The notes below the pieces were generated by a model. It saw nothing but the letters and a program-made list of their open reading frames with translations, made no database searches and was not told the origin of the DNA. Positions 23,369 through 32,000 of a DNA stretch of 32,000 nt are shown piece after piece. The DNA is from Desulfospira joergensenii DSM 10085 (GTDB lineage: Bacteria > Desulfobacterota > Desulfobacteria > Desulfobacterales > Desulfobacteraceae). Positions within the stretch are counted from its first letter, which is position 1. Each line of letters begins with the position of its first letter. Position numbers and translations under genes: made by a program. The stretch covers positions 1,479,223 to 1,511,222 of the forward strand of contig NZ_ATUG01000001.1 of NCBI RefSeq assembly GCF_000420085.1, in the 5' to 3' direction.

Positions 23369-24334
23369 ATGATCTGTATTGTCAGCCCGACCACAGACCC
23401 CGCTGTCAACCTGGCCACGGAAGAACATCTTCTGATCAACCGGACCCAATCGATGTTCATGCTCTGGAGAAGCCGGCCGGTTGTGGTGGTCGGCCGGAAC
23501 CAAAACGCCCTGTCCCAAATCAACCATGATCTTATCCTAGATCAAAAGCTTACCGTGATCCGGCGTATCAGCGGCGGCGGAGCCGTGTACCAGGATTTGG
23601 GAAACCTTAATTTCTCTTTTATCGGCCCCCGCAATCTGTCCGTTTCCACAGACTACCTGCCCTATCTTACTCCCATTATGGAGGCCTTGGCAGGTTTGGG
23701 TGTAAATGCCTGCCCGGACGGGCAAAGCGATATCTCAGTGGACGGATTCAAGGTATCGGGCAATGCCCAGCATATACACAGAAACCGGGTGCTTCACCAC
23801 GGCACCCTTTTGTTTGACTCGGACCTTCCGGCGCTGACAGACGCCCTTACAGCCCCTTTAAACCGCTACAGGGACAACTCCGTGGATTCGGTCCGGAAAA
23901 CCGTTTCCAACTTGAAGCCCCGGCTAAAAACAGATATGGGGGTGGAATCCTTTGTGGAAAAAATGGCTGCAGCCATGACGGCCCGGCTCAATGCCGTGCG
24001 GACCGCCCTGACTATGGCGGATCACATGGCCATCCAGCAGCTGGCCCAAAAAAGGTATCGGACATGGGAATGGAATTTCGCAAGATCTCCGAAATACGAT
24101 TTTGCCCGTCACATCCAGACGCCGGCCGGTCCGGTTTCCGTGAAATTCCATGTAGCAAAGGGGATCATCGGCCAGGTCCGGATAGAAGCAAATTTCCTTA
24201 AAAAACCGGGCCGGGCCGGGCTGGAAAAAGCAGTCCGGGGAAACCGGCACCGGTACAAAGATCTTTTGGAAATTTTCCATGACCATCCCGGTTTTAAAGG
24301 TTTTGCACAGGCCTTTGTCCGGAAGCTGTTCTAA
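23369..24334 (+). CDS. lplA: Lipoate-protein ligase A
   Basis: DPAVNLATEEHLL, VVVGRNQN, RRISGGGAVYQDLGNLNFSFI and KVSGNAQHIHRNRVLHHGTLLFDSDL. It starts 14 nt after the yvcK-like stop. Confidence 0.85.
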   Translation: MICIVSPTTDPAVNLATEEHLLINRTQSMFMLWRSRPVVVVGRNQNALSQINHDLILDQKLTVIRRISGGGAVYQDLGNLNFSFIGPRNLSVSTDYLPYLTPIMEALAGLGVNACPDGQSDISVDGFKVSGNAQHIHRNRVLHHGTLLFDSDLPALTDALTAPLNRYRDNSVDSVRKTVSNLKPRLKTDMGVESFVEKMAAAMTARLNAVRTALTMADHMAIQQLAQKRYRTWEWNFARSPKYDFARHIQTPAGPVSVKFHVAKGIIGQVRIEANFLKKPGRAGLEKAVRGNRHRYKDLLEIFHDHPGFKGFAQAFVRKLF

Positions 24335-24443: not shown

Positions 24444-24459
24444 CGGCACAGGACTTGCA
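24444..24459 (+). promoter_or_regulatory. Sigma-54 (-24/-12) promoter candidate
   Basis: CGGCAC-AGGAC-TTGCA, against the consensus TGGCAC-N5-TTGCA. It lies 125 nt upstream of the AhpD-like ATG. An inverted repeat, TTCAAAA-N10-TTTTGAA (24348-24371), lies about 75-95 bp further upstream. Confidence 0.6.
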
Positions 24460-24583: not shown

Positions 24584-24913
24584 ATGAGCACAGCACCGGA
24601 AAAAGCAGCCCAGGCCATGGCCTATTTACAAGAATACGCTCCCGAGGAATACGAGAAATACCTTGAATTCACGGCCAGATTAGGGACAAGCGGGGGATTG
24701 TCTCCCATGACCCAGGAGTTGATCCTCATCGGCTGTGCAGTCATGTCCCAATGTGAAATGTGCATCACCATTCATGTGGAAAATGCGGCTTCCATGGGCG
24801 CCTCCCGGGAAGACATCCTCCAGGCCGCCCTGATGTCAGTTGCCATGGGCGGTTCCCCCAAACTCATGTACATGTCCTATGTATTTGAAGCACTGGAGGA
24901 TCTGTTTGATTAA
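24584..24913 (+). CDS. Carboxymuconolactone decarboxylase (AhpD-like) family protein
   Basis: SQCEMCITIH (CxxC...H) is the AhpD-like redox motif. Size is 109 aa. RBS TAAGGAGAA. Confidence 0.8.
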   Translation: MSTAPEKAAQAMAYLQEYAPEEYEKYLEFTARLGTSGGLSPMTQELILIGCAVMSQCEMCITIHVENAASMGASREDILQAALMSVAMGGSPKLMYMSYVFEALEDLFD

Positions 24914-24986: not shown

Positions 24987-25021
24987 AAGAGGCCGGCACC
25001 CGGATAAGGTGCCGGCCTCTT
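24987..25021. terminator. Bidirectional stem-loop terminator between convergent genes
   Basis: AAGAGGCCGGCACC (24987-25000) pairs with GGTGCCGGCCTCTT (25008-25021) around a 7-nt loop. GGTTTTGTT follows on the + strand. The element sits between the + gene ending at 24913 and the - gene ending at 25039. Confidence 0.75.
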
Positions 25022-25038: not shown

Positions 25039-25350
25039 TTAGGCGAACAGGCCGTCCCCCGAAGCATTGCCCAGTCCAGGGTGGATGTCGAAGCGGACAA
25101 CCCCTACGGGAATCTTTCCTTCCACCGCGTCGGTGACCACTGCCGCGCCCCGGTTACCGAACCCGCCGCACAGTTCAATGGCCGCGACTCCTTCAGCCAG
25201 AAGCTGTTTTGCAATTTCTGCAGCCTGGGCGTAATCTTTCACCCCCACGGCCAGCAGTTTCACTTTCGGAGTTTCGATCCACTGCCGGTGGGTTTTTGGA
25301 TCCGCTTCCGGGGCCACAAATATGAAGGCTGCTTTCAGAACGTCTGACAT
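25039..25350 (-). CDS. Small (103 aa) conserved hypothetical alpha/beta protein; last gene of the aco operon (possibly the DUF6506 family, recalled from memory only)
   Basis: RBS AAAAAGGAGGAAGAA lies directly upstream. Sequence: KAAFIFVAPEADP..., AAIELCGGFGNRGAAVV. There is an 80-nt gap after acoX and it is on the same strand. Confidence 0.6.
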   Translation of the reverse strand: MSDVLKAAFIFVAPEADPKTHRQWIETPKVKLLAVGVKDYAQAAEIAKQLLAEGVAAIELCGGFGNRGAAVVTDAVEGKIPVGVVRFDIHPGLGNASGDGLFA

Positions 25351-25429
25351 TTCTTCCTCCTTTTTTTAAAAAAAATCGATACAGGGTAAAATTCTTTCTT
25401 TTATATTCAACAGAACCAGCCAAACCGGA

Positions 25430-26425
25430 TCAATCCTCTTGGGATACCATGATCCGGTTTTTCCGGGCCCAGGACATGGTCCTGTGAACGTCAATGACCA
25501 GCGGTCCTTTGCCGGAGAGACGCACCATGGCTGTCTGCCCCTGCTTTAGGCTTGTCTCCCGCTCGCCGTCCAGGGCCAGGACACACCGGGGGGATTCTAC
25601 CGCCACTAAAATATCCTCCTCCAGAAAATCCCATTGCCGCACCCGGACCTCCCTGAGCAGCCCCGGCGCGATGGCCGCCGTGACCTTTTGTTTTCCGCCC
25701 CTCCCAAGGCGCAGATGCAGGCCCCGGTGCTCTTCGGGTAAAACCTCGGCCAGCTGCCCGCCCACGGCGGACAGGCCGATGGAATCCGGTCGGCACCGGG
25801 TCAAAAAAAGTTGAGACACCTTTTCCATATCCCAGATTGCCCGGGATGCGATGAACCGGTCATTGTATACGGCCACATCCACCAGCGCCATATCCACCGG
25901 GATTCCATCCACCAGCACATCCAGCTGGCACGATCGGTAGACCCCGCCGGATTGGGGAACCTTCCCGGTGGCGATGAGCCCGGCTGCAATTCCGCCGATG
26001 GTCGCTTCGATCATGTAGGGGAACACATTGTTGGTTCCCGTGGAAATCGGCAGCATGGGCGTTTTTCCATTGTTCTTTTTGGCCACGGCCCGGCAGGTGC
26101 CGTCACCGCCGAGGACGATCACGGCATCGGCTCCGTTCTGACCGACCCATTGGCCTGCGGCAACGGAATCGTTCTGGTTCCCCTTGGGCTGAATGGGGAT
26201 TTCCGCCAGGTCCATGGAAATGTCCAGTCCCTGGACCGCCCGGGGAACAATGGCGTACTCATCCGGCATATACCTGACCCGTGTGACCCCGACAGCCTCC
26301 AGGCCCGTCAGCAACCGCCGGACAATACGAACCTTTTCCTGATTGTCAAAAACACTGCCGTGGGCCACCAGCCGGCGGATATCTTTTCCGGATACGGGAT
26401 TGGCTATGATACCAACCGTTGACAA
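25430..26425 (-). CDS. acoX: AcoX-type ATP-NAD kinase-family protein (acetoin catabolism protein X)
   Basis: VGIIANPVSGKD, VIVLGGDGTCRAV and ISTGTNNVFP are NAD-kinase/diacylglycerol-kinase-like motifs. I propose the TTG start at 26425 (RBS GAAGGGGGA, 6-nt spacer), because the track start at 26497 would place a 13-bp hairpin inside the coding region. Confidence 0.7.
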   Translation of the reverse strand: MSTVGIIANPVSGKDIRRLVAHGSVFDNQEKVRIVRRLLTGLEAVGVTRVRYMPDEYAIVPRAVQGLDISMDLAEIPIQPKGNQNDSVAAGQWVGQNGADAVIVLGGDGTCRAVAKKNNGKTPMLPISTGTNNVFPYMIEATIGGIAAGLIATGKVPQSGGVYRSCQLDVLVDGIPVDMALVDVAVYNDRFIASRAIWDMEKVSQLFLTRCRPDSIGLSAVGGQLAEVLPEEHRGLHLRLGRGGKQKVTAAIAPGLLREVRVRQWDFLEEDILVAVESPRCVLALDGERETSLKQGQTAMVRLSGKGPLVIDVHRTMSWARKNRIMVSQED

Positions 26426-26448
26426 AGCAATTCCCCCTTCCGCGAATG

Positions 26449-26482
26449 CCGATCTGCCCGGATGTAAAACCGGGCAGATCGG
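26449..26482 (-). other. Perfect 13-bp stem / 8-nt loop intercistronic hairpin between acoB and acoX
   Basis: CCGATCTGCCCGG (26449-26461) is the reverse complement of CCGGGCAGATCGG (26470-26482). No U-tract follows on the transcribed strand. Confidence 0.65.
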
Positions 26483-26511
26483 GCTGAAAATTCGCATGCA
26501 TGTGTTCTGAT

Positions 26512-27486
26512 TTATTCCCTCATCTTTTTGGCTGCTGCCACAATATCATCCACCCCCGGAATAAAGGCCTGCTCCAGGGGAGGAGAAAAGGGGACCGGTG
26601 TGAACGGCGCGCCGACCCGGACAATGGGAGCATCCAGCAGGTCAAAGCCGTCTTCAGCCACCTGGGCGGCGATTTCAGCCCCGGCTCCTGCGGTCCTTAC
26701 GGCTTCATGGGCAATAAGAAGCCCATGGGTTTTGCCTACGGAATTCAAAATGGTGTCCATATCCAGGGGGGAAAGGGTCCGGGGATCCACCACTTCGGCC
26801 TTGAGTCCCTCTTCGGCCAGTTTATCCGCGGCTTCAAAGGCGGTGAGCAGCATGTTAGAGAAGGCCACAATGGTCAGATCCTCCCCTTCCCTGACGACGT
26901 TGGCCTTGCCGAAATCAATGGTATAAGATTCCTCGGGAACCTCTCCCTCTGTTCCGTAAAGCATTTTATGCTCCAGAAAGACCACGGGGTTGTCATCCCT
27001 GATCGCGGAGATGAGAAGCCCCTTGGCGTCATACGGGGTAGCCGGGATGACCACCTTCAGACCCGGCACATGCATGAACCAGGCCTCCAGGGACTGGGAA
27101 TGCTGGGCCGCGGCACCGAGCCCCGCTCCCTGGGGCATTCTGAGCACCATGGGGATTTTGGCCTTTCCCCCAAACATATACCGCATTTTGGCGGCCTGGT
27201 TGAAAAGCTGATCCAGGGCCACGCCGATGAAATCCACAAACATGAGTTCCGCGACCGGGCGAAGCCCTGCGGCTGCCGCACCGGTGGCTGCACCGACAAT
27301 GGCGCTCTCGGTGATGGGGGTGTCTTTGACCCGGTCTTCCCCGAACTGATCAAGAAGACCCTGGGTCACCCCGAAACAGCCGCCGAACTGCCCCACGTCC
27401 TCTCCGAAAATCAATACATTGGAGTCCCTTTCCATTTCCTGCCTGAGCGCTTCATTTATGGCCTCTAAATATGTTTTGGTTGCCAT
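26512..27486 (-). CDS. acoB: Acetoin:acceptor oxidoreductase / 2-oxoacid dehydrogenase E1 beta subunit
   Basis: MATKTYLEAINEALRQEMERDSNVLIFGEDVG is a canonical E1-beta N-terminus. The ATG at 27486 is preceded by AAAGGAGGAATC. The track start at 27528 adds 14 aa and has no RBS. Confidence 0.9.
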   Translation of the reverse strand: MATKTYLEAINEALRQEMERDSNVLIFGEDVGQFGGCFGVTQGLLDQFGEDRVKDTPITESAIVGAATGAAAAGLRPVAELMFVDFIGVALDQLFNQAAKMRYMFGGKAKIPMVLRMPQGAGLGAAAQHSQSLEAWFMHVPGLKVVIPATPYDAKGLLISAIRDDNPVVFLEHKMLYGTEGEVPEESYTIDFGKANVVREGEDLTIVAFSNMLLTAFEAADKLAEEGLKAEVVDPRTLSPLDMDTILNSVGKTHGLLIAHEAVRTAGAGAEIAAQVAEDGFDLLDAPIVRVGAPFTPVPFSPPLEQAFIPGVDDIVAAAKKMRE

Positions 27487-27550
27487 GATTCCTCCTTTGG
27501 TATCTTTTTTGACATTTTGCAAAAGCATAAAATTAATTATTCAAAGTCAC

Positions 27551-28510
27551 TCAGGCATAGACATCGTGGGTGAGATCGGACGCATCAGGCAGGGGGCTTT
27601 CCAAAGCGAAAGCAACCGCTGCCTCAAGATCGGCTTCCACTTTCTTGCTGAGTTCCGCCACCTGTTCAGCGGTCATGATTTCTTCTTCAACCAGCTTTTT
27701 CTCATACAGGGCGACCGGATCTTTTTCTTTCCAGGCTTCCAGTTCTTTGTCGTCCCGGTATACGCAGGCGTCCCCTTCAAAGTGTCCCCGCCACCGGTAG
27801 GTCTTGCATTCGATCAAAGAGGGTCCCTGCCCGCTGCGGGCCCGCTTCACGCCCTCGGAAACCGCTTCATACACGGCCAGGACATCGTTTCCATCCACCA
27901 CCACACCAGGCATGTCATAGGCCGAGGCCCGGTCGGCAATATCGGTAATGGCCATGGACTTGCTGGTGGGACATGAAATTCCGTATCCGTTGTTTTCATT
28001 GACAAACACAACCGGAAGCTTCCAGGCGCTGGCCAGATTGAGGGCTTCCTGGGTGGTACCCTGGTTGGAGGCGCCGTCTCCGAAAAAACAGACCGCCACA
28101 TGATCTTCCCCCCGGTATTTAATGGCCAGGGCCGCGCCGTTGGCCAATGGTCCGCCCCCGCCCACGATACCGTTGGCACCCAGGATGCCGAGATCCACAT
28201 CGGCAATGTGCATGGAACCGCCCTTGCCCTTGCAATATCCCGTGGTCCGGCCGAAAATTTCCGACATCATCTGGTTCAGGTTTCCCCCCTTGGCAATCAC
28301 GTGGCCGTGGCCCCGGTGGGTGCTGGTGATGTAGTCCTTGTCCCGCAGGCTGGCGCAGGCTCCTGCGGCAATGGCTTCTTCCCCAAGGTAGAGATGAACG
28401 AATCCGGGGATCTTTCCGTCTGCGAAAAATCCCTGGACCCGGTTTTCAAAATGCCGGATTTTGAGCATGGTGTGAAGCATCTCAACCATTTGTTCATTGG
28501 AAAGACTCAT
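27551..28510 (-). CDS. acoA: Acetoin:acceptor oxidoreductase / TPP-dependent E1 alpha subunit
   Basis: YLGEEAIAAG, STHRGHGH and the TPP motif FFGDGASNQG...NNGYG. RBS CAAGGAGG. Confidence 0.9.
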   Translation of the reverse strand: MSLSNEQMVEMLHTMLKIRHFENRVQGFFADGKIPGFVHLYLGEEAIAAGACASLRDKDYITSTHRGHGHVIAKGGNLNQMMSEIFGRTTGYCKGKGGSMHIADVDLGILGANGIVGGGGPLANGAALAIKYRGEDHVAVCFFGDGASNQGTTQEALNLASAWKLPVVFVNENNGYGISCPTSKSMAITDIADRASAYDMPGVVVDGNDVLAVYEAVSEGVKRARSGQGPSLIECKTYRWRGHFEGDACVYRDDKELEAWKEKDPVALYEKKLVEEEIMTAEQVAELSKKVEADLEAAVAFALESPLPDASDLTHDVYA

Positions 28511-28591
28511 TTGGATACCTCCTTGACTTTTCCTGTCTTACTGCCCCGTTCAAACGAAGCACAGCAGGATGATGTTAATGTTTTTAGATCT

Positions 28592-28972
28592 TTATCCCCG
28601 ATACTCGGAATCAATATCGATCCAGACGGTTACCGCCGTATTGGCCACCATTATGGTGTCACAGCCTTCCGCGAACGTGCTCACGCAGATTCCCCGGGCA
28701 CACATCCCACCGGCGGTGGTTGACACCGATGGGGTGCCGATGGGAATCTGTGCCTTTACCGCCTCGACGTCCACCTGATCGGGCCGGGGGCAGGCCACCA
28801 GGACCTCCACATGAACCCCCTGGAACTGCTTTCGATTCAAAATCTCAAGGATCCCGCACAGGCAGCTCCTGGAAACCGCGTCTTTCACCGCCCGGCAGGC
28901 CGCTTTCGTGACATCGTTTCCATGAAGATCCGCCCCGGTTCCCAATTCCACAATAAAGCGTTTTTTGGCCAT
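28592..28972 (-). CDS. Lin0512-family conserved hypothetical protein (126 aa)
   Basis: FIVELGTGADLHGNDVTKAACRAVKDAV matches my recollection of the Lin0512/TIGR02058-type N-terminus. RBS GGGGGAGA. The gene is embedded between acoC and acoA. Confidence 0.6.
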   Translation of the reverse strand: MAKKRFIVELGTGADLHGNDVTKAACRAVKDAVSRSCLCGILEILNRKQFQGVHVEVLVACPRPDQVDVEAVKAQIPIGTPSVSTTAGGMCARGICVSTFAEGCDTIMVANTAVTVWIDIDSEYRG

Positions 28973-29081
28973 GTTATCTCCCCCTGTTGTATTTCAAACT
29001 CTCGAGCCAGCCGGGGCGTTCCGTTTCCCTGTTTGACGCAGGCGGATCAGGGACGGGCATCCCCGGGGCCGTCCGTACCGG

Positions 29082-30431
29082 TTACCCCAGAAGCGTGAGA
29101 GGGTCTTCCAGGTAATTGGCCAGTGTCCTGAGGAATGTCATGGCCGGCACCCCGTCCACGACCCGGTGGTCAAAGGTCAGACTCAGGGTCATATGGGTCC
29201 TGGCGCAGATTTCCCCCTTGTATACGGCGGCCGTTTCTTTGGCCCGGCCCACGCCGAGGATCCCGGTTTCCGGCGGATTGAGGATAGGGGTAAACCCATC
29301 CACCCCGATCATGGATACATTGGTGATGGTAAAGGTGCCGCCCTGGATTTCATCCATGGTCAATTCGTTGTTCCTGGCCTTTTTGGCCAGTTCCCGGATC
29401 CGGACCGCCATCTCTATCAGGCCTAAGGTGTCGGCCATCTTGACATTGGGCACCACCAGGCCTTCTTCCAGGGCCACGGCAATGCCCAGGTTCACGTTTC
29501 TGCCCAGCTCGATCCCCTGGTCTGTGAGGCAGGAATTCATGATGGGATGGTCCTTCAATGCCCGGCACACTGCATAGGCCACGATGTCGTTAAAAGATAC
29601 CCTGGGGAGATCCGTATTTTCGTATTTTTTCCTTAGTTTATTCTTCAACTCGACCATGGGGGTCACATCTGCGTCCACGAACACGGAAAGCTGGGCAGCA
29701 TTGTGCAGGCTGGCCATCATATTGTCGGCAATGACCTGGCGCAGTCCCTCCATGGGAATGACGGTACCTGGAACCGGCCCGGCCGCCTTTAACTGGGATG
29801 CCGAGGGCTTGACGGCCCGGAGGACGTCTGCCTTGGTGATTTTCCCGCCCGCTCCGGTTCCTGGTACCAGGCGGATGTCGATACCTGCCATTTTGGCGGC
29901 TGCCACGGCGCTCTCGCTGGCATAAACGGATGCCGGCTCCGGCGCAGGGGGAGCCGCGTCCAGTTTTTCCTTAAAGTCCTTCACATCCTGCTCCACCACC
30001 CGCCCCTTGGGGCCTGAACCTGGGACCTCTGCCAGATCAATCCCCCAGTCCTTGGCCTGGCGCCTGGCCAGGGGAGAGGCAGGGATAAATCCGGATTTTT
30101 TTGGTTTCCCTTCATCTGCCGCCGGTGATTCCTCCCGGGGTTCGCCGTCTTTTTCCTCTTTTACAACGGCCTCCCTTGGTTCCGGAGTTTCACCTTCCCG
30201 GGCCAGGACCGCCAGCACCGTCATGACCGGAACGGTCTCCCCCTCGGGCACCACGATTTGAAATAAAATGCCGTCATCGGGAGATTCCACAGTATTGGTA
30301 ATTTTGCTGGTTTCCACCTCAAGCAAATTCTCGCCTTTTGATACCGTGTCCCCTTGGGCTTTCAGCCATTTGGACACCTTTCCCTCTTTCATGGTCAGCC
30401 CCCATTTGGGCATCAGAACTTCAACAGCCAC
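29082..30431 (-). CDS. acoC: Dihydrolipoamide acetyltransferase (E2) of the acetoin dehydrogenase complex, with one lipoyl domain and two PSBD-like segments
   Basis: Lipoyl domain VLMPKWGLTMKEGKVSKWL...EVETSKITN and catalytic LTFDHRVVDG. The GTG start at 30431 is preceded by AAAGGAGGGAAATT. The track start at 30518 would place the sigma-54 promoter almost entirely inside the ORF. Confidence 0.9.
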   Translation of the reverse strand: MAVEVLMPKWGLTMKEGKVSKWLKAQGDTVSKGENLLEVETSKITNTVESPDDGILFQIVVPEGETVPVMTVLAVLAREGETPEPREAVVKEEKDGEPREESPAADEGKPKKSGFIPASPLARRQAKDWGIDLAEVPGSGPKGRVVEQDVKDFKEKLDAAPPAPEPASVYASESAVAAAKMAGIDIRLVPGTGAGGKITKADVLRAVKPSASQLKAAGPVPGTVIPMEGLRQVIADNMMASLHNAAQLSVFVDADVTPMVELKNKLRKKYENTDLPRVSFNDIVAYAVCRALKDHPIMNSCLTDQGIELGRNVNLGIAVALEEGLVVPNVKMADTLGLIEMAVRIRELAKKARNNELTMDEIQGGTFTITNVSMIGVDGFTPILNPPETGILGVGRAKETAAVYKGEICARTHMTLSLTFDHRVVDGVPAMTFLRTLANYLEDPLTLLG

Positions 30432-30513
30432 AATTTCCCTCCTTTCAAAACCCAATCTCGGATCGAATTCGACTGGAAAATCCACTTTCCCGGACAATTT
30501 AAGGAAAACAATA

Positions 30514-30529
30514 AGCAAGACAAGTGCCA
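30514..30529 (-). promoter_or_regulatory. Sigma-54 (-24/-12) promoter of the aco operon
   Basis: The minus strand reads CTGGCAC-TTGTC-TTGCTT, an exact TGGCAC-N5-TTGCT. It lies about 83 nt upstream of the acoC GTG and is divergent from the sigma-54 activator gene. Confidence 0.8.
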
Positions 30530-30679
30530 GCCAATATTTGCTTATAAATCCAGAAGGATAAAAAACAATCGATTTCCAGTGTCCTGAATTCGAACAGGAG
30601 AAAAATAAAATTTGATTCAGAAACTCAATTATTATAGGATGCCTTAATTATTTCCACTGATACCAGACAGGGTTCTGCC

Positions 30680-32000
30680 ATGTATGAATTCATCAGAAGG
30701 GAAAACGGCTACCGGATTGTCAAGATAGACCCGCCTGAAAACCGGGGAACTTCATTGCCTCCCCAATTGCCGGACATTAGGAATCCTTCACCGGTGGATT
30801 TCAAATCCTGGCGGAATTTTGTGGATAAAGGAACCGTAGACACGGGCCGGATCCATACACCCATTTTAAATTCATGGCAGAGATGCCGCAGCATGGGGGT
30901 GGACCCGACCCTGGGCAAATGCGAAGACATCCGCTCCATGGGAGAGCTGTCCTCGGAACTGTTCAGTTTAAAGGATATTGTATCCGATACCATCGGGTTT
31001 ATCTATGAAACGGTCAAGGACCGGGGGTTACTGGTAACCATTTCCGATGCCGGCGGGTACCTGATCTCCATGTTCGGGGACCACCGGACCCTTCTGGGGG
31101 CAGATCACCTCAACTTCGGTCCCGGAGCCAACTGGTCCGAAGGCAGCGTCGGCACCAATGCCATTGGCACGGCCCTGGCTGAAGGGCAGATGCTGCAGGT
31201 TTCCGGCAGGGAGCACTTTTGTGAAAGCCACCACTCCTGGATCTGCTCTGCAGCACCGATATTCAACCTGGACAGCCGGGTCATGGGATGCGTCGACATC
31301 TCCGGCCCCATGACTTCCGACCACAGCGACGCCTTAACCCTGGCCGTTAAAGGGGCAAGGATTCTGGAAAGCCGGCTCATCCGGTGCCAAAGCATGGAAC
31401 TGCGCCGTCAGTCCTCCCGGATCATCTCCTCGGCCTTCAACACGGTCATGACCGGTCTGATTTTCCTGGACCTTGCCGGCAGGATCCAGGTGGCCAACCC
31501 CATTGCCGCATCCCTGCTCGGGAAACAAAGCCATGAACTCATCGGATGTCCCATGGACACCTGGTGCCGGACGGCATCGGCCCTGGAAAAGATAAAGGCC
31601 GCGCCCCGTCTCTATGCGGAAAAAGGATTTTCCCTGAAATGGCGTCTGTCCAACCCCATGGATGTCCGCCTGTACCCGGTCACCACATCAAACGACGTGG
31701 TCATGGGCTTTATCCTGGTGCTCAAGGAACTTCAAGGGATCCGCCGGGCTCCCCCATTCCCGGCAAAGCCCGACCTGAACCGGGATCCCTTCCAAAGCAT
31801 CATCGGCCAGAGCAGCGCCATAAACAAGGCCCTGGAAACGGCCAGGCGTGTGGCCGACACCTCCACCACGGTTCTGATCACCGGAGACAGCGGCACGGGA
31901 AAGGAAATTCTGGCTCAGTCCCTTCACTGTTCCAGCTCCCGGTCCAAGGGCCCCTTTGTGGCGGTGAACTGCGGGGCCATCCCCCGGGAACTCATCCAGA
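30680..32000 (+). CDS. acoR: Sigma-54-dependent transcriptional activator, AcoR type (GAF-like sensor, PAS, AAA+); 3' end lies outside the window
   Basis: Absent from the ORF track because there is no in-window stop. I translated 30680-31999 codon by codon and found no stop. Motifs: SWQRCRSMGVDP, GTNAIGTALAEG, SHHSWICSAAPI, CVDISGP (AcoR-type N-terminal sensor), then FQSIIGQSSAI and Walker A VLITGDSGTGKE. Confidence 0.85.
   Translation, partial: MYEFIRRENGYRIVKIDPPENRGTSLPPQLPDIRNPSPVDFKSWRNFVDKGTVDTGRIHTPILNSWQRCRSMGVDPTLGKCEDIRSMGELSSELFSLKDIVSDTIGFIYETVKDRGLLVTISDAGGYLISMFGDHRTLLGADHLNFGPGANWSEGSVGTNAIGTALAEGQMLQVSGREHFCESHHSWICSAAPIFNLDSRVMGCVDISGPMTSDHSDALTLAVKGARILESRLIRCQSMELRRQSSRIISSAFNTVMTGLIFLDLAGRIQVANPIAASLLGKQSHELIGCPMDTWCRTASALEKIKAAPRLYAEKGFSLKWRLSNPMDVRLYPVTTSNDVVMGFILVLKELQGIRRAPPFPAKPDLNRDPFQSIIGQSSAINKALETARRVADTSTTVLITGDSGTGKEILAQSLHCSSSRSKGPFVAVNCGAIPRELIQ

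Follow-up and report, generated by a model that had tools for sequence, protein, structure and literature searches.

The 32,000-nt stretch of the Desulfospira joergensenii DSM 10085 genome analysed here (the window; G000:C1:1479223-1511222) carries a gene cluster of the acetoin dehydrogenase (aco) type that contains no gene for dihydrolipoyl dehydrogenase (E3). With a probability of roughly 0.7, this cluster encodes an acetoin-dehydrogenase-type lipoyl enzyme system under the control of AcoR and sigma-54, for which E3 is supplied from elsewhere and in which the accessory genes do not take the place of E3. The gene content, the promoter, the synteny and the E3 genes elsewhere in the genome were read directly, and from these we infer the substrate, the identity of the E3 used and all protein contacts. 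In such a system, E1 (alpha2beta2, thiamine-diphosphate dependent) would release acetaldehyde from acetoin or a closely related alpha-hydroxyketone and load the acetyl group onto the lipoyl arm of E2, by which acetyl-CoA would then be formed. An ordinary NAD-dependent dihydrolipoyl dehydrogenase encoded elsewhere would dock on the subunit-binding domains of E2 and re-oxidise the dihydrolipoyl arm, and E2 would be lipoylated by the neighbouring lipoate-protein ligase LplA.

Pfam and NCBIfam scans of the window placed six closely spaced, co-directional genes on the minus strand within 25039-30431, which read E2, Lin0512, E1-alpha, E1-beta, AcoX-like and DUF6506 from the sigma-54 promoter. The gene list and order of the initial annotation (acoC, a Lin0512-family gene, acoA, acoB, acoX and a 103-aa gene) were confirmed by the family models and by the promoter match. 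The acoC-type E2 (dihydrolipoyl acetyltransferase, 449 aa; 29082..30431) is composed of one lipoyl domain (PF00364), two E3_binding, i.e. peripheral-subunit-binding, stretches (PF02817) and a 2-oxoacid_dh catalytic domain (PF00198), in the translation of which the DHRVVDG motif was read. Its start was set to the GTG at 30431 behind GGAGG, which yields the N-terminus MAVEVLMPKWG, and a TTG at 30518 was discarded. The tandem subunit-binding domains (Pfam E3_binding, two copies) are located at positions 29811-30086 of the window. The Lin0512-family protein (126 aa; 28592..28972) was assigned by PF09585 at 131 bits and by TIGR02058, the acoA-type, thiamine-diphosphate-dependent E1-alpha (319 aa; 27551..28510) by PF00676 at 306 bits, and the acoB-type E1-beta (324 aa; 26512..27486) by PF02779, PF02780 and NF006667 at 400 bits. 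For E1-beta the second ATG (27486) was used as start instead of the position 27528 given in the list of open reading frames (ORFs); the orthologues comprise 323-324 aa. The AcoX-like protein (330 aa; 25430..26422) gave weak matches to PF01513 (NAD_kinase) and PF00781 (DAGK_cat) and contains a GGDGT motif, and its start was placed at the TTG at 26422 instead of 26497 in the ORF list, with orthologues of 328-329 aa. The last gene encodes a DUF6506 protein (103 aa; 25039..25350; PF20116 at 132 bits). The genes for a thiamine-diphosphate-dependent E1 alpha and beta, a lipoylated-type E2 and a sigma-54 promoter with an AcoR-type activator, by which a cluster is classed as aco-type, are all present, as is AcoX, the gene of which is frequent though not universal in aco clusters.

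The sigma-54 (-24/-12) promoter at 30515..30529 on the minus strand is an exact TGGCAC-N5-TTGC. This pattern has two matches in the window versus 0.08 expected by chance, and of the 13 orthologous loci, the window counted, 12 have a matching element 37-139 nt upstream of E2. The divergent gene on the plus strand (30680..32000) encodes an AcoR-like sigma-54 enhancer-binding activator of 688 aa with the domains Sigma54_activat, AAA_lid_14 and HTH_8; its ORF (L011:903-2969) continues 969 nt beyond the window and ends at G000:C1:1511968. The activator is 41-51% identical to the divergent regulators of all orthologous clusters, on which precomputed Pfam matches list MimR_N and GAF. At the other end of the operon, sequence reading and a terminator scan detected a hairpin of 14 pairs at 24987..25021, between the convergent DUF6506 and AhpD-like genes. 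It had been described as a strong bidirectional terminator, of which the terminator on the plus strand stood, whereas the second strand was not accepted by the scan.

E3 was searched for in the whole 6.1-Mb genome with TIGR01350 at its curated cut-off of 408.8 bits for dihydrolipoyl dehydrogenase. No match was obtained inside the window, in agreement with the initial annotation, and together with Pfam scans of the remaining window genes this search ruled out a divergent or hidden E3 within it. An E3 gene just outside the window past acoR, which the initial annotation had named as an observation that would refute its reading, was ruled out as well, since the next 14 kb were annotated without any E3 and encode an M24 peptidase, a two-component pair, a VWA protein, a 3-hydroxyacyl-CoA dehydrogenase, a thiolase and a fused B12 mutase. 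The latter is a 1092-aa B12 mutase-MeaB GTPase fusion, located with the thiolase and 3-hydroxyacyl-CoA dehydrogenase genes 5-11 kb past acoR (L011:8293-13883 on G000:C1). The horizontal-transfer check gave a GC content of 56.2% at 25039-32000, which ranks in the top 2.4% of 7-kb windows of a genome averaging 50.6%, and the elevated GC extends about 10 kb past acoR.

Elsewhere in the genome, two E3 genes exceed the TIGR01350 cut-off, with 484 and 480 bits. One of them (C1:1281023-1282399), 198 kb upstream, is the fourth gene of a pyruvate dehydrogenase (PDH)-like E1a(x-type)-E1b-E2-E3 operon that is followed by an LplA-like gene, and the other (C3:341311-342732) adjoins gcvT, gcvH, gcvPA and gcvPB as well as LipB-like and LipA-like genes. 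Two further E3-like frames of 720-730 aa are narrowly under the lipoamide dehydrogenase cut-off (G000:C3:1028098-1029453 and G000:C2:748198-749550, with 376 and 368 bits). An E3 is available to borrow because of the two genomic E3 genes, and E2 also keeps its E3-docking domains; the earlier proposal that the complex uses an E3 encoded elsewhere in the genome is therefore well supported. The absence of E3 from the cluster is ordinary and, most simply, one of the two genomic E3 genes would serve it. The view of the cluster as non-canonical for want of E3 found no support, since an E3 gene is likewise missing from the acoXABC clusters characterised in Pseudomonas putida and Alcaligenes eutrophus, which have a sigma-54 promoter, AcoR and AcoX (PMC10107126). 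An E3-less aco operon is in itself of little weight, as well-studied bacteria supply E3 in trans from a shared gene and two E3 genes are present here.

Relatives of the cluster were found by look-ups of Lin0512 and DUF6506 homologues. The shared block consists of an activator, a divergent E2-Lin0512-E1a-E1b-AcoX-DUF6506 operon and then a convergent CMD gene, and was found in Desulfosarcina cetonica, Desulfosoma caldarium, and metagenome-assembled genomes (MAGs) of a Desulfobulbus and a Desulfovibrio. A convergent LplA gene is also present in the Desulfosarcina and Desulfosoma loci. The Desulfobulbus locus is without a window-type LplA and has LipA-like and LipB-like lipoylation genes close by, its contig stopping before any activator gene, and the Desulfovibrio locus has no LplA adjacent. 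Additionally, 401 genomes of the phylum were sampled, 30 of which contain Lin0512, and 20 of those loci were mapped by tblastn. The arrangement of the window (type A) occurs among the mapped loci in three genomes of family f85, so that the comparison of synteny in Desulfobacterota proposed by the initial annotation showed the gene order to recur in Desulfosarcina, Desulfosoma, Desulfobulbus, Desulfovibrio and f85. Type B comprises five genomes of family f49, in which the six genes are followed by a short-chain dehydrogenase/reductase (SDR), a second E2, E3 and an LplA-LipA fusion (L063:8541-19107, also L062 and L064-L066; the fusion has 529 aa). One genome, G279, has a classical set with additions, i.e. 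zinc-dependent alcohol dehydrogenase (Zn-ADH), AcoX, E1a, E1b, E2, E3, the LplA-LipA fusion and Lin0512, and four f53 genomes have E1a-E1b-E2-Lin0512, Zn-ADH and AcoX. A distant Lin0512 paralogue (about 40% identity) was found outside aco contexts, mostly in f46.

Outside the phylum, a Thermoanaerobacteraceae genome carries a variant with DUF6506, an AcoR-like gene, Zn-ADH and LplA, and then Lin0512-E1a-E1b-AcoX. A 12.9-kb contig of a Thermococcaceae archaeon MAG (L068:1-12816) encodes two E1 alpha/beta pairs, LplA, AcoX, Lin0512, DUF6506 and OsmC; its lipoyl proteins are free-standing, its E2 is without a lipoyl domain, and no E3 is found on this contig. In the phylum sample, E3 above the cut-off was detected in 28 of the 30 Lin0512 genomes versus 230 of 401 overall, and both Lin0512 genomes without E3 are incomplete MAG-grade assemblies (93% and 87% complete). 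As related genomes are not independent, these counts are supportive and do not constitute an independent test. The distribution of Lin0512 is patchy, since no other genome of the order to which D. joergensenii belongs contains it in the sample. The cluster is a conserved module, a form of the acetoin dehydrogenase system that is widespread in anaerobes.

With respect to the proteins of the operon to which no enzymatic step of the complex was assigned, Lin0512 was found beside aco-type E1/E2 genes in four distinct gene orders. It is homologous to PDB 3c8l, a structural genomics entry titled 'FtsZ-like protein of unknown function', and its invariant residues include G11, G13, D15, H17 and G18. 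The fold only weakly resembles those of the FtsZ C-domain, RidA, chorismate mutase and IspF, a resemblance from which no function follows. The DUF6506 family is small, with 516 representatives at 50% identity, and many of its members are about 200 aa long through tandem duplication. In an alignment of 50 sequences, the single-domain form has one invariant cysteine, Cys61 of the ELCGGFG motif. The confident structure model of DUF6506 (pLDDT 93) has no significant neighbour in PDB; the top-ranking weak hit, the N-domain of diacylglycerol kinase DgkB (E 6e-3, TM 0.56), belongs to the same fold family as AcoX. When the profiles of DUF6506 and AcoX were compared, ELCGGFG against VLGGDGT was all that aligned, below significance (probability 0.12%, E 0.49). 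The names Lin0512 and DUF6506 were found in no searchable paper by the literature search, and the description of the two as recurrent aco partners may be a new observation, as may the constant presence of an AhpD-like CxxC gene next to the E3-less form of the cluster. Judged by their gene neighbourhoods, Lin0512, AcoX and DUF6506 appear to be consistent, unstudied accessory proteins of the aco clusters of anaerobes.

Downstream of the operon, an AhpD-like protein of the CMD family (109 aa) is encoded convergently on the plus strand at 24584..24913. It was identified by PF02627 and TIGR00778, has a CxxCxxxH motif (C57, C60, H64) and matches the AhpD structure PDB 5dik at 1e-12, in keeping with the CMD fold and active site of the AhpD family. 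Its gene stands tail-to-tail with the DUF6506 gene in eight out of eight E3-less type-A loci, which come from at least five families. Close orthologues among the 401 phylum genomes were detected only in four type-A genomes and in G145, and no orthologue was found anywhere in the five complete type-B (f49) genomes, the clusters of which carry E3. G145, which belongs to the same order as D. joergensenii and is without Lin0512, has a co-directional E1a-E1b-LplA-CMD-E2 operon (L074:7993-11899 on G145:C68), and its CMD protein is 75% identical to the AhpD-like protein of the window; the contig ends inside the E2 gene, and no other contig yielded its remainder. The AhpD-like gene of the window is without an adjacent AhpC gene. 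A sigma-54-like element, CGGCAC-N5-TTGCA, was read 125 nt before the AhpD-like gene (24444..24459, plus strand). It was not found ahead of the orthologous CMD genes at 7 other loci and its use is therefore uncertain; co-regulation of the AhpD-like gene by sigma-54 as a general feature was rejected as unsupported. Also on the plus strand, the gene at 23369..24334 encodes LplA (321 aa; TIGR00545 at 304 bits, cut-off 280), a conserved neighbour in the loci L014, L015 and L058-L060 and likely the lipoylation enzyme for E2.

Several observations weigh against an acetoin-dehydrogenase-type system served by a borrowed E3. NCBIfam gave no acetoin-specific E1 match, while E1-alpha is also under the PDH equivalog cut-off. 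The two E3 proteins of the genome share a generic 33-34% identity with the in-cluster E3s of the relatives, neither of them being close, for which reason the partner E3 cannot be named. Moreover, a specific AhpD-like gene goes along with clusters of the E3-less form, a pattern of gene presence which hints that re-oxidation may run not through E3 alone. With regard to the substrate, the assignment is based on context because E1-alpha is below the cut-off for PDH (TIGR03182, 366 bits versus 394; TIGR03181, 269 versus 411) and an acetoin-specific E1 match is lacking. Pyruvate, another 2-oxoacid, methylacetoin or another alpha-hydroxyketone could be used in place of acetoin, as E1-beta passes the cut-off of 321 bits of NF006667, a subfamily model named for PDH E1-beta, Pfam scans of the window genes detected no butanediol dehydrogenase or acetaldehyde dehydrogenase, and the operon in Pseudodesulfovibrio mercurii responded to arsenate and not to a tested carbon source. 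Such a substrate is nevertheless improbable given the score of E1-alpha, the separate PDH-type operon in the genome and the AcoR-type activator, AcoX and sigma-54 promoter, which are hallmarks of aco clusters (PMC3543383, PMC10107126). Zn-ADH or SDR genes of the butanediol dehydrogenase type are, furthermore, found within the related clusters L016, L067, L063, L061 and L050. Taken together, regulator type, AcoX, butanediol-dehydrogenase-type genes in relatives, the E1-alpha score and the separate PDH-type operon suggest acetoin as the substrate.

Concerning the re-oxidation of the dihydrolipoyl arm, the initial annotation had put forward the accessory genes for this role, and a complex that needs no E3 would then rely on Lin0512, AcoX or DUF6506. 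Their genes are co-transcribed with those of E1 and E2 and conserved, DUF6506 has an invariant cysteine, and the literature assigns no function to any of the three. All three, however, share a cluster with E3 in the five f49 genomes, and AcoX and Lin0512 sit with the classical E1a-E1b-E2-E3 set in G279, so that they are poor candidates for replacing E3. No flavin, NAD-disulfide-reductase or CxxC signature was detected in any of them by Pfam, NCBIfam or motif reading, the fold searches gave no redox-enzyme neighbour, and AcoX is found in aerobes whose complex shares its E3 (PMC10107126). It is thus unlikely that these proteins replace E3, and a complex that works through them without any E3 is very improbable. 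By analogy with AhpD of Mycobacterium tuberculosis and lipoyl-DlaT, the AhpD-like CxxC protein might instead drain the dihydrolipoyl arm of E2, beside or in place of E3, to a peroxiredoxin or another disulfide acceptor. This outlet is suggested by the CxxCxxxH motif and the similarity to a solved AhpD, by the adjacency of the gene in every E3-less locus, by its place inside the E1a-E1b-LplA-CMD-E2 operon of G145 and by its absence from the f49 genomes, which carry a second E2 and E3 instead. In the archaeal variant OsmC occupies the equivalent place, Ohr and OsmC being lipoyl-dependent peroxidases (PMC5384416), and in M. tuberculosis the lipoyl arm of DlaT, which can be loaded through E1 or E3, reduces AhpD, so that a lipoyl-E2 reduced through E1 can drive AhpD there (PMC12995895). 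Because of AhpD/DlaT in M. tuberculosis, the lipoyl dependence of Ohr/OsmC and the tracking of the E3-less form, a redox link between the AhpD-like protein and lipoyl-E2 may be considered a reasonable lead, and of the elements of the locus this protein alone might have a part in lipoyl re-oxidation. As the actual route in this complex it is nonetheless unlikely: about two lineages underlie the contrast between clusters that include E3 and those that do not, in the window the gene faces the operon convergently and is not co-transcribed with it, its sigma-54-like element is not conserved, and all type-A genomes tested have retained E3 genes. Such an outlet could carry a stoichiometric catabolic flux only with a large acceptor downstream, none of which is encoded nearby, and the AhpD-like gene, which is always near lipoylation genes too, may instead serve the handling of lipoate.

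The association of Lin0512 and DUF6506 with aco-type E1/E2 and AcoX across Desulfobacterota, Thermoanaerobacteraceae and Thermococcaceae gives these families a concrete biochemical context. Should the AhpD-like protein exchange electrons with the lipoyl arm, the mycobacterial mechanism would be extended to anaerobes. A more far-reaching and doubtful proposal is that of a distinct acetoin dehydrogenase of strict anaerobes with Lin0512, AcoX and DUF6506 as subunits or assembly factors, the lipoyl arm of its E3-less version being tapped by the AhpD-like protein (by OsmC in archaea). The reduction of peroxides or disulfides would in that case be driven directly by oxidation of the substrate, bypassing NADH. 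The results provide leads for annotation and for simple biochemistry rather than a new kind of system.

Compared with known systems, the acoXABC clusters of P. putida and A. eutrophus resemble the window in the sigma-54 promoter with AcoR, in AcoX and in the lack of E3 (PMC10107126). Their order is acoX-A-B-C with no Lin0512 or DUF6506 listed, whereas the window is E2-first, and its E2 fits the model NF011457 for their E2 type only over lipoyl domain and linker and carries a full 2-oxoacid_dh domain instead. The acoABCSL cluster of Pelobacter carbinolicus, an anaerobe of the same phylum, likewise encodes E1 alpha/beta and an E2 of the 2-oxoacid_dh type, and in both cases AcoX, an AcoR-type activator and a lipoylation gene belong to the cluster or adjoin it (PMC3543383). 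In P. carbinolicus the genes run E1a-E1b-E2-(AcoS)-E3, with E3 and lipoyl synthase inside the cluster and acoX and acoR in the larger cluster, whereas the operon of the window begins with E2, includes Lin0512 and DUF6506 and has no E3, and the LplA and AhpD-like genes are convergent. With the peroxidase system AhpC/AhpD/DlaT/Lpd of M. tuberculosis the window shares a small CxxC protein of the AhpD family and a lipoylated E2 (PMC12995895), but the link is known here from gene neighbourhood alone, no AhpC gene is adjacent, and the CMD protein is short (109 aa). A gene order like that of the window has been described for P. mercurii ND132, for which a preprint predicts the AoDH ES operon DND132_3102-3107, an acetoin dehydrogenase homologue, with an activator followed by E2, E1-alpha, E1-beta and an AcoX-like protein as in the window (10.1101/2022.10.17.512643). 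This operon is known from annotation and transcriptomes and was induced in arsenate-washed cells (10.1101/2022.10.17.512643); Lin0512, DUF6506, the AhpD-like gene and the missing E3 are not discussed in the preprint. An already characterised gene order with a known E3 partner had been named by the initial annotation as a finding that would refute its reading; the description of the order in P. mercurii ND132, as an annotated homologue, goes half of the way towards such a finding.

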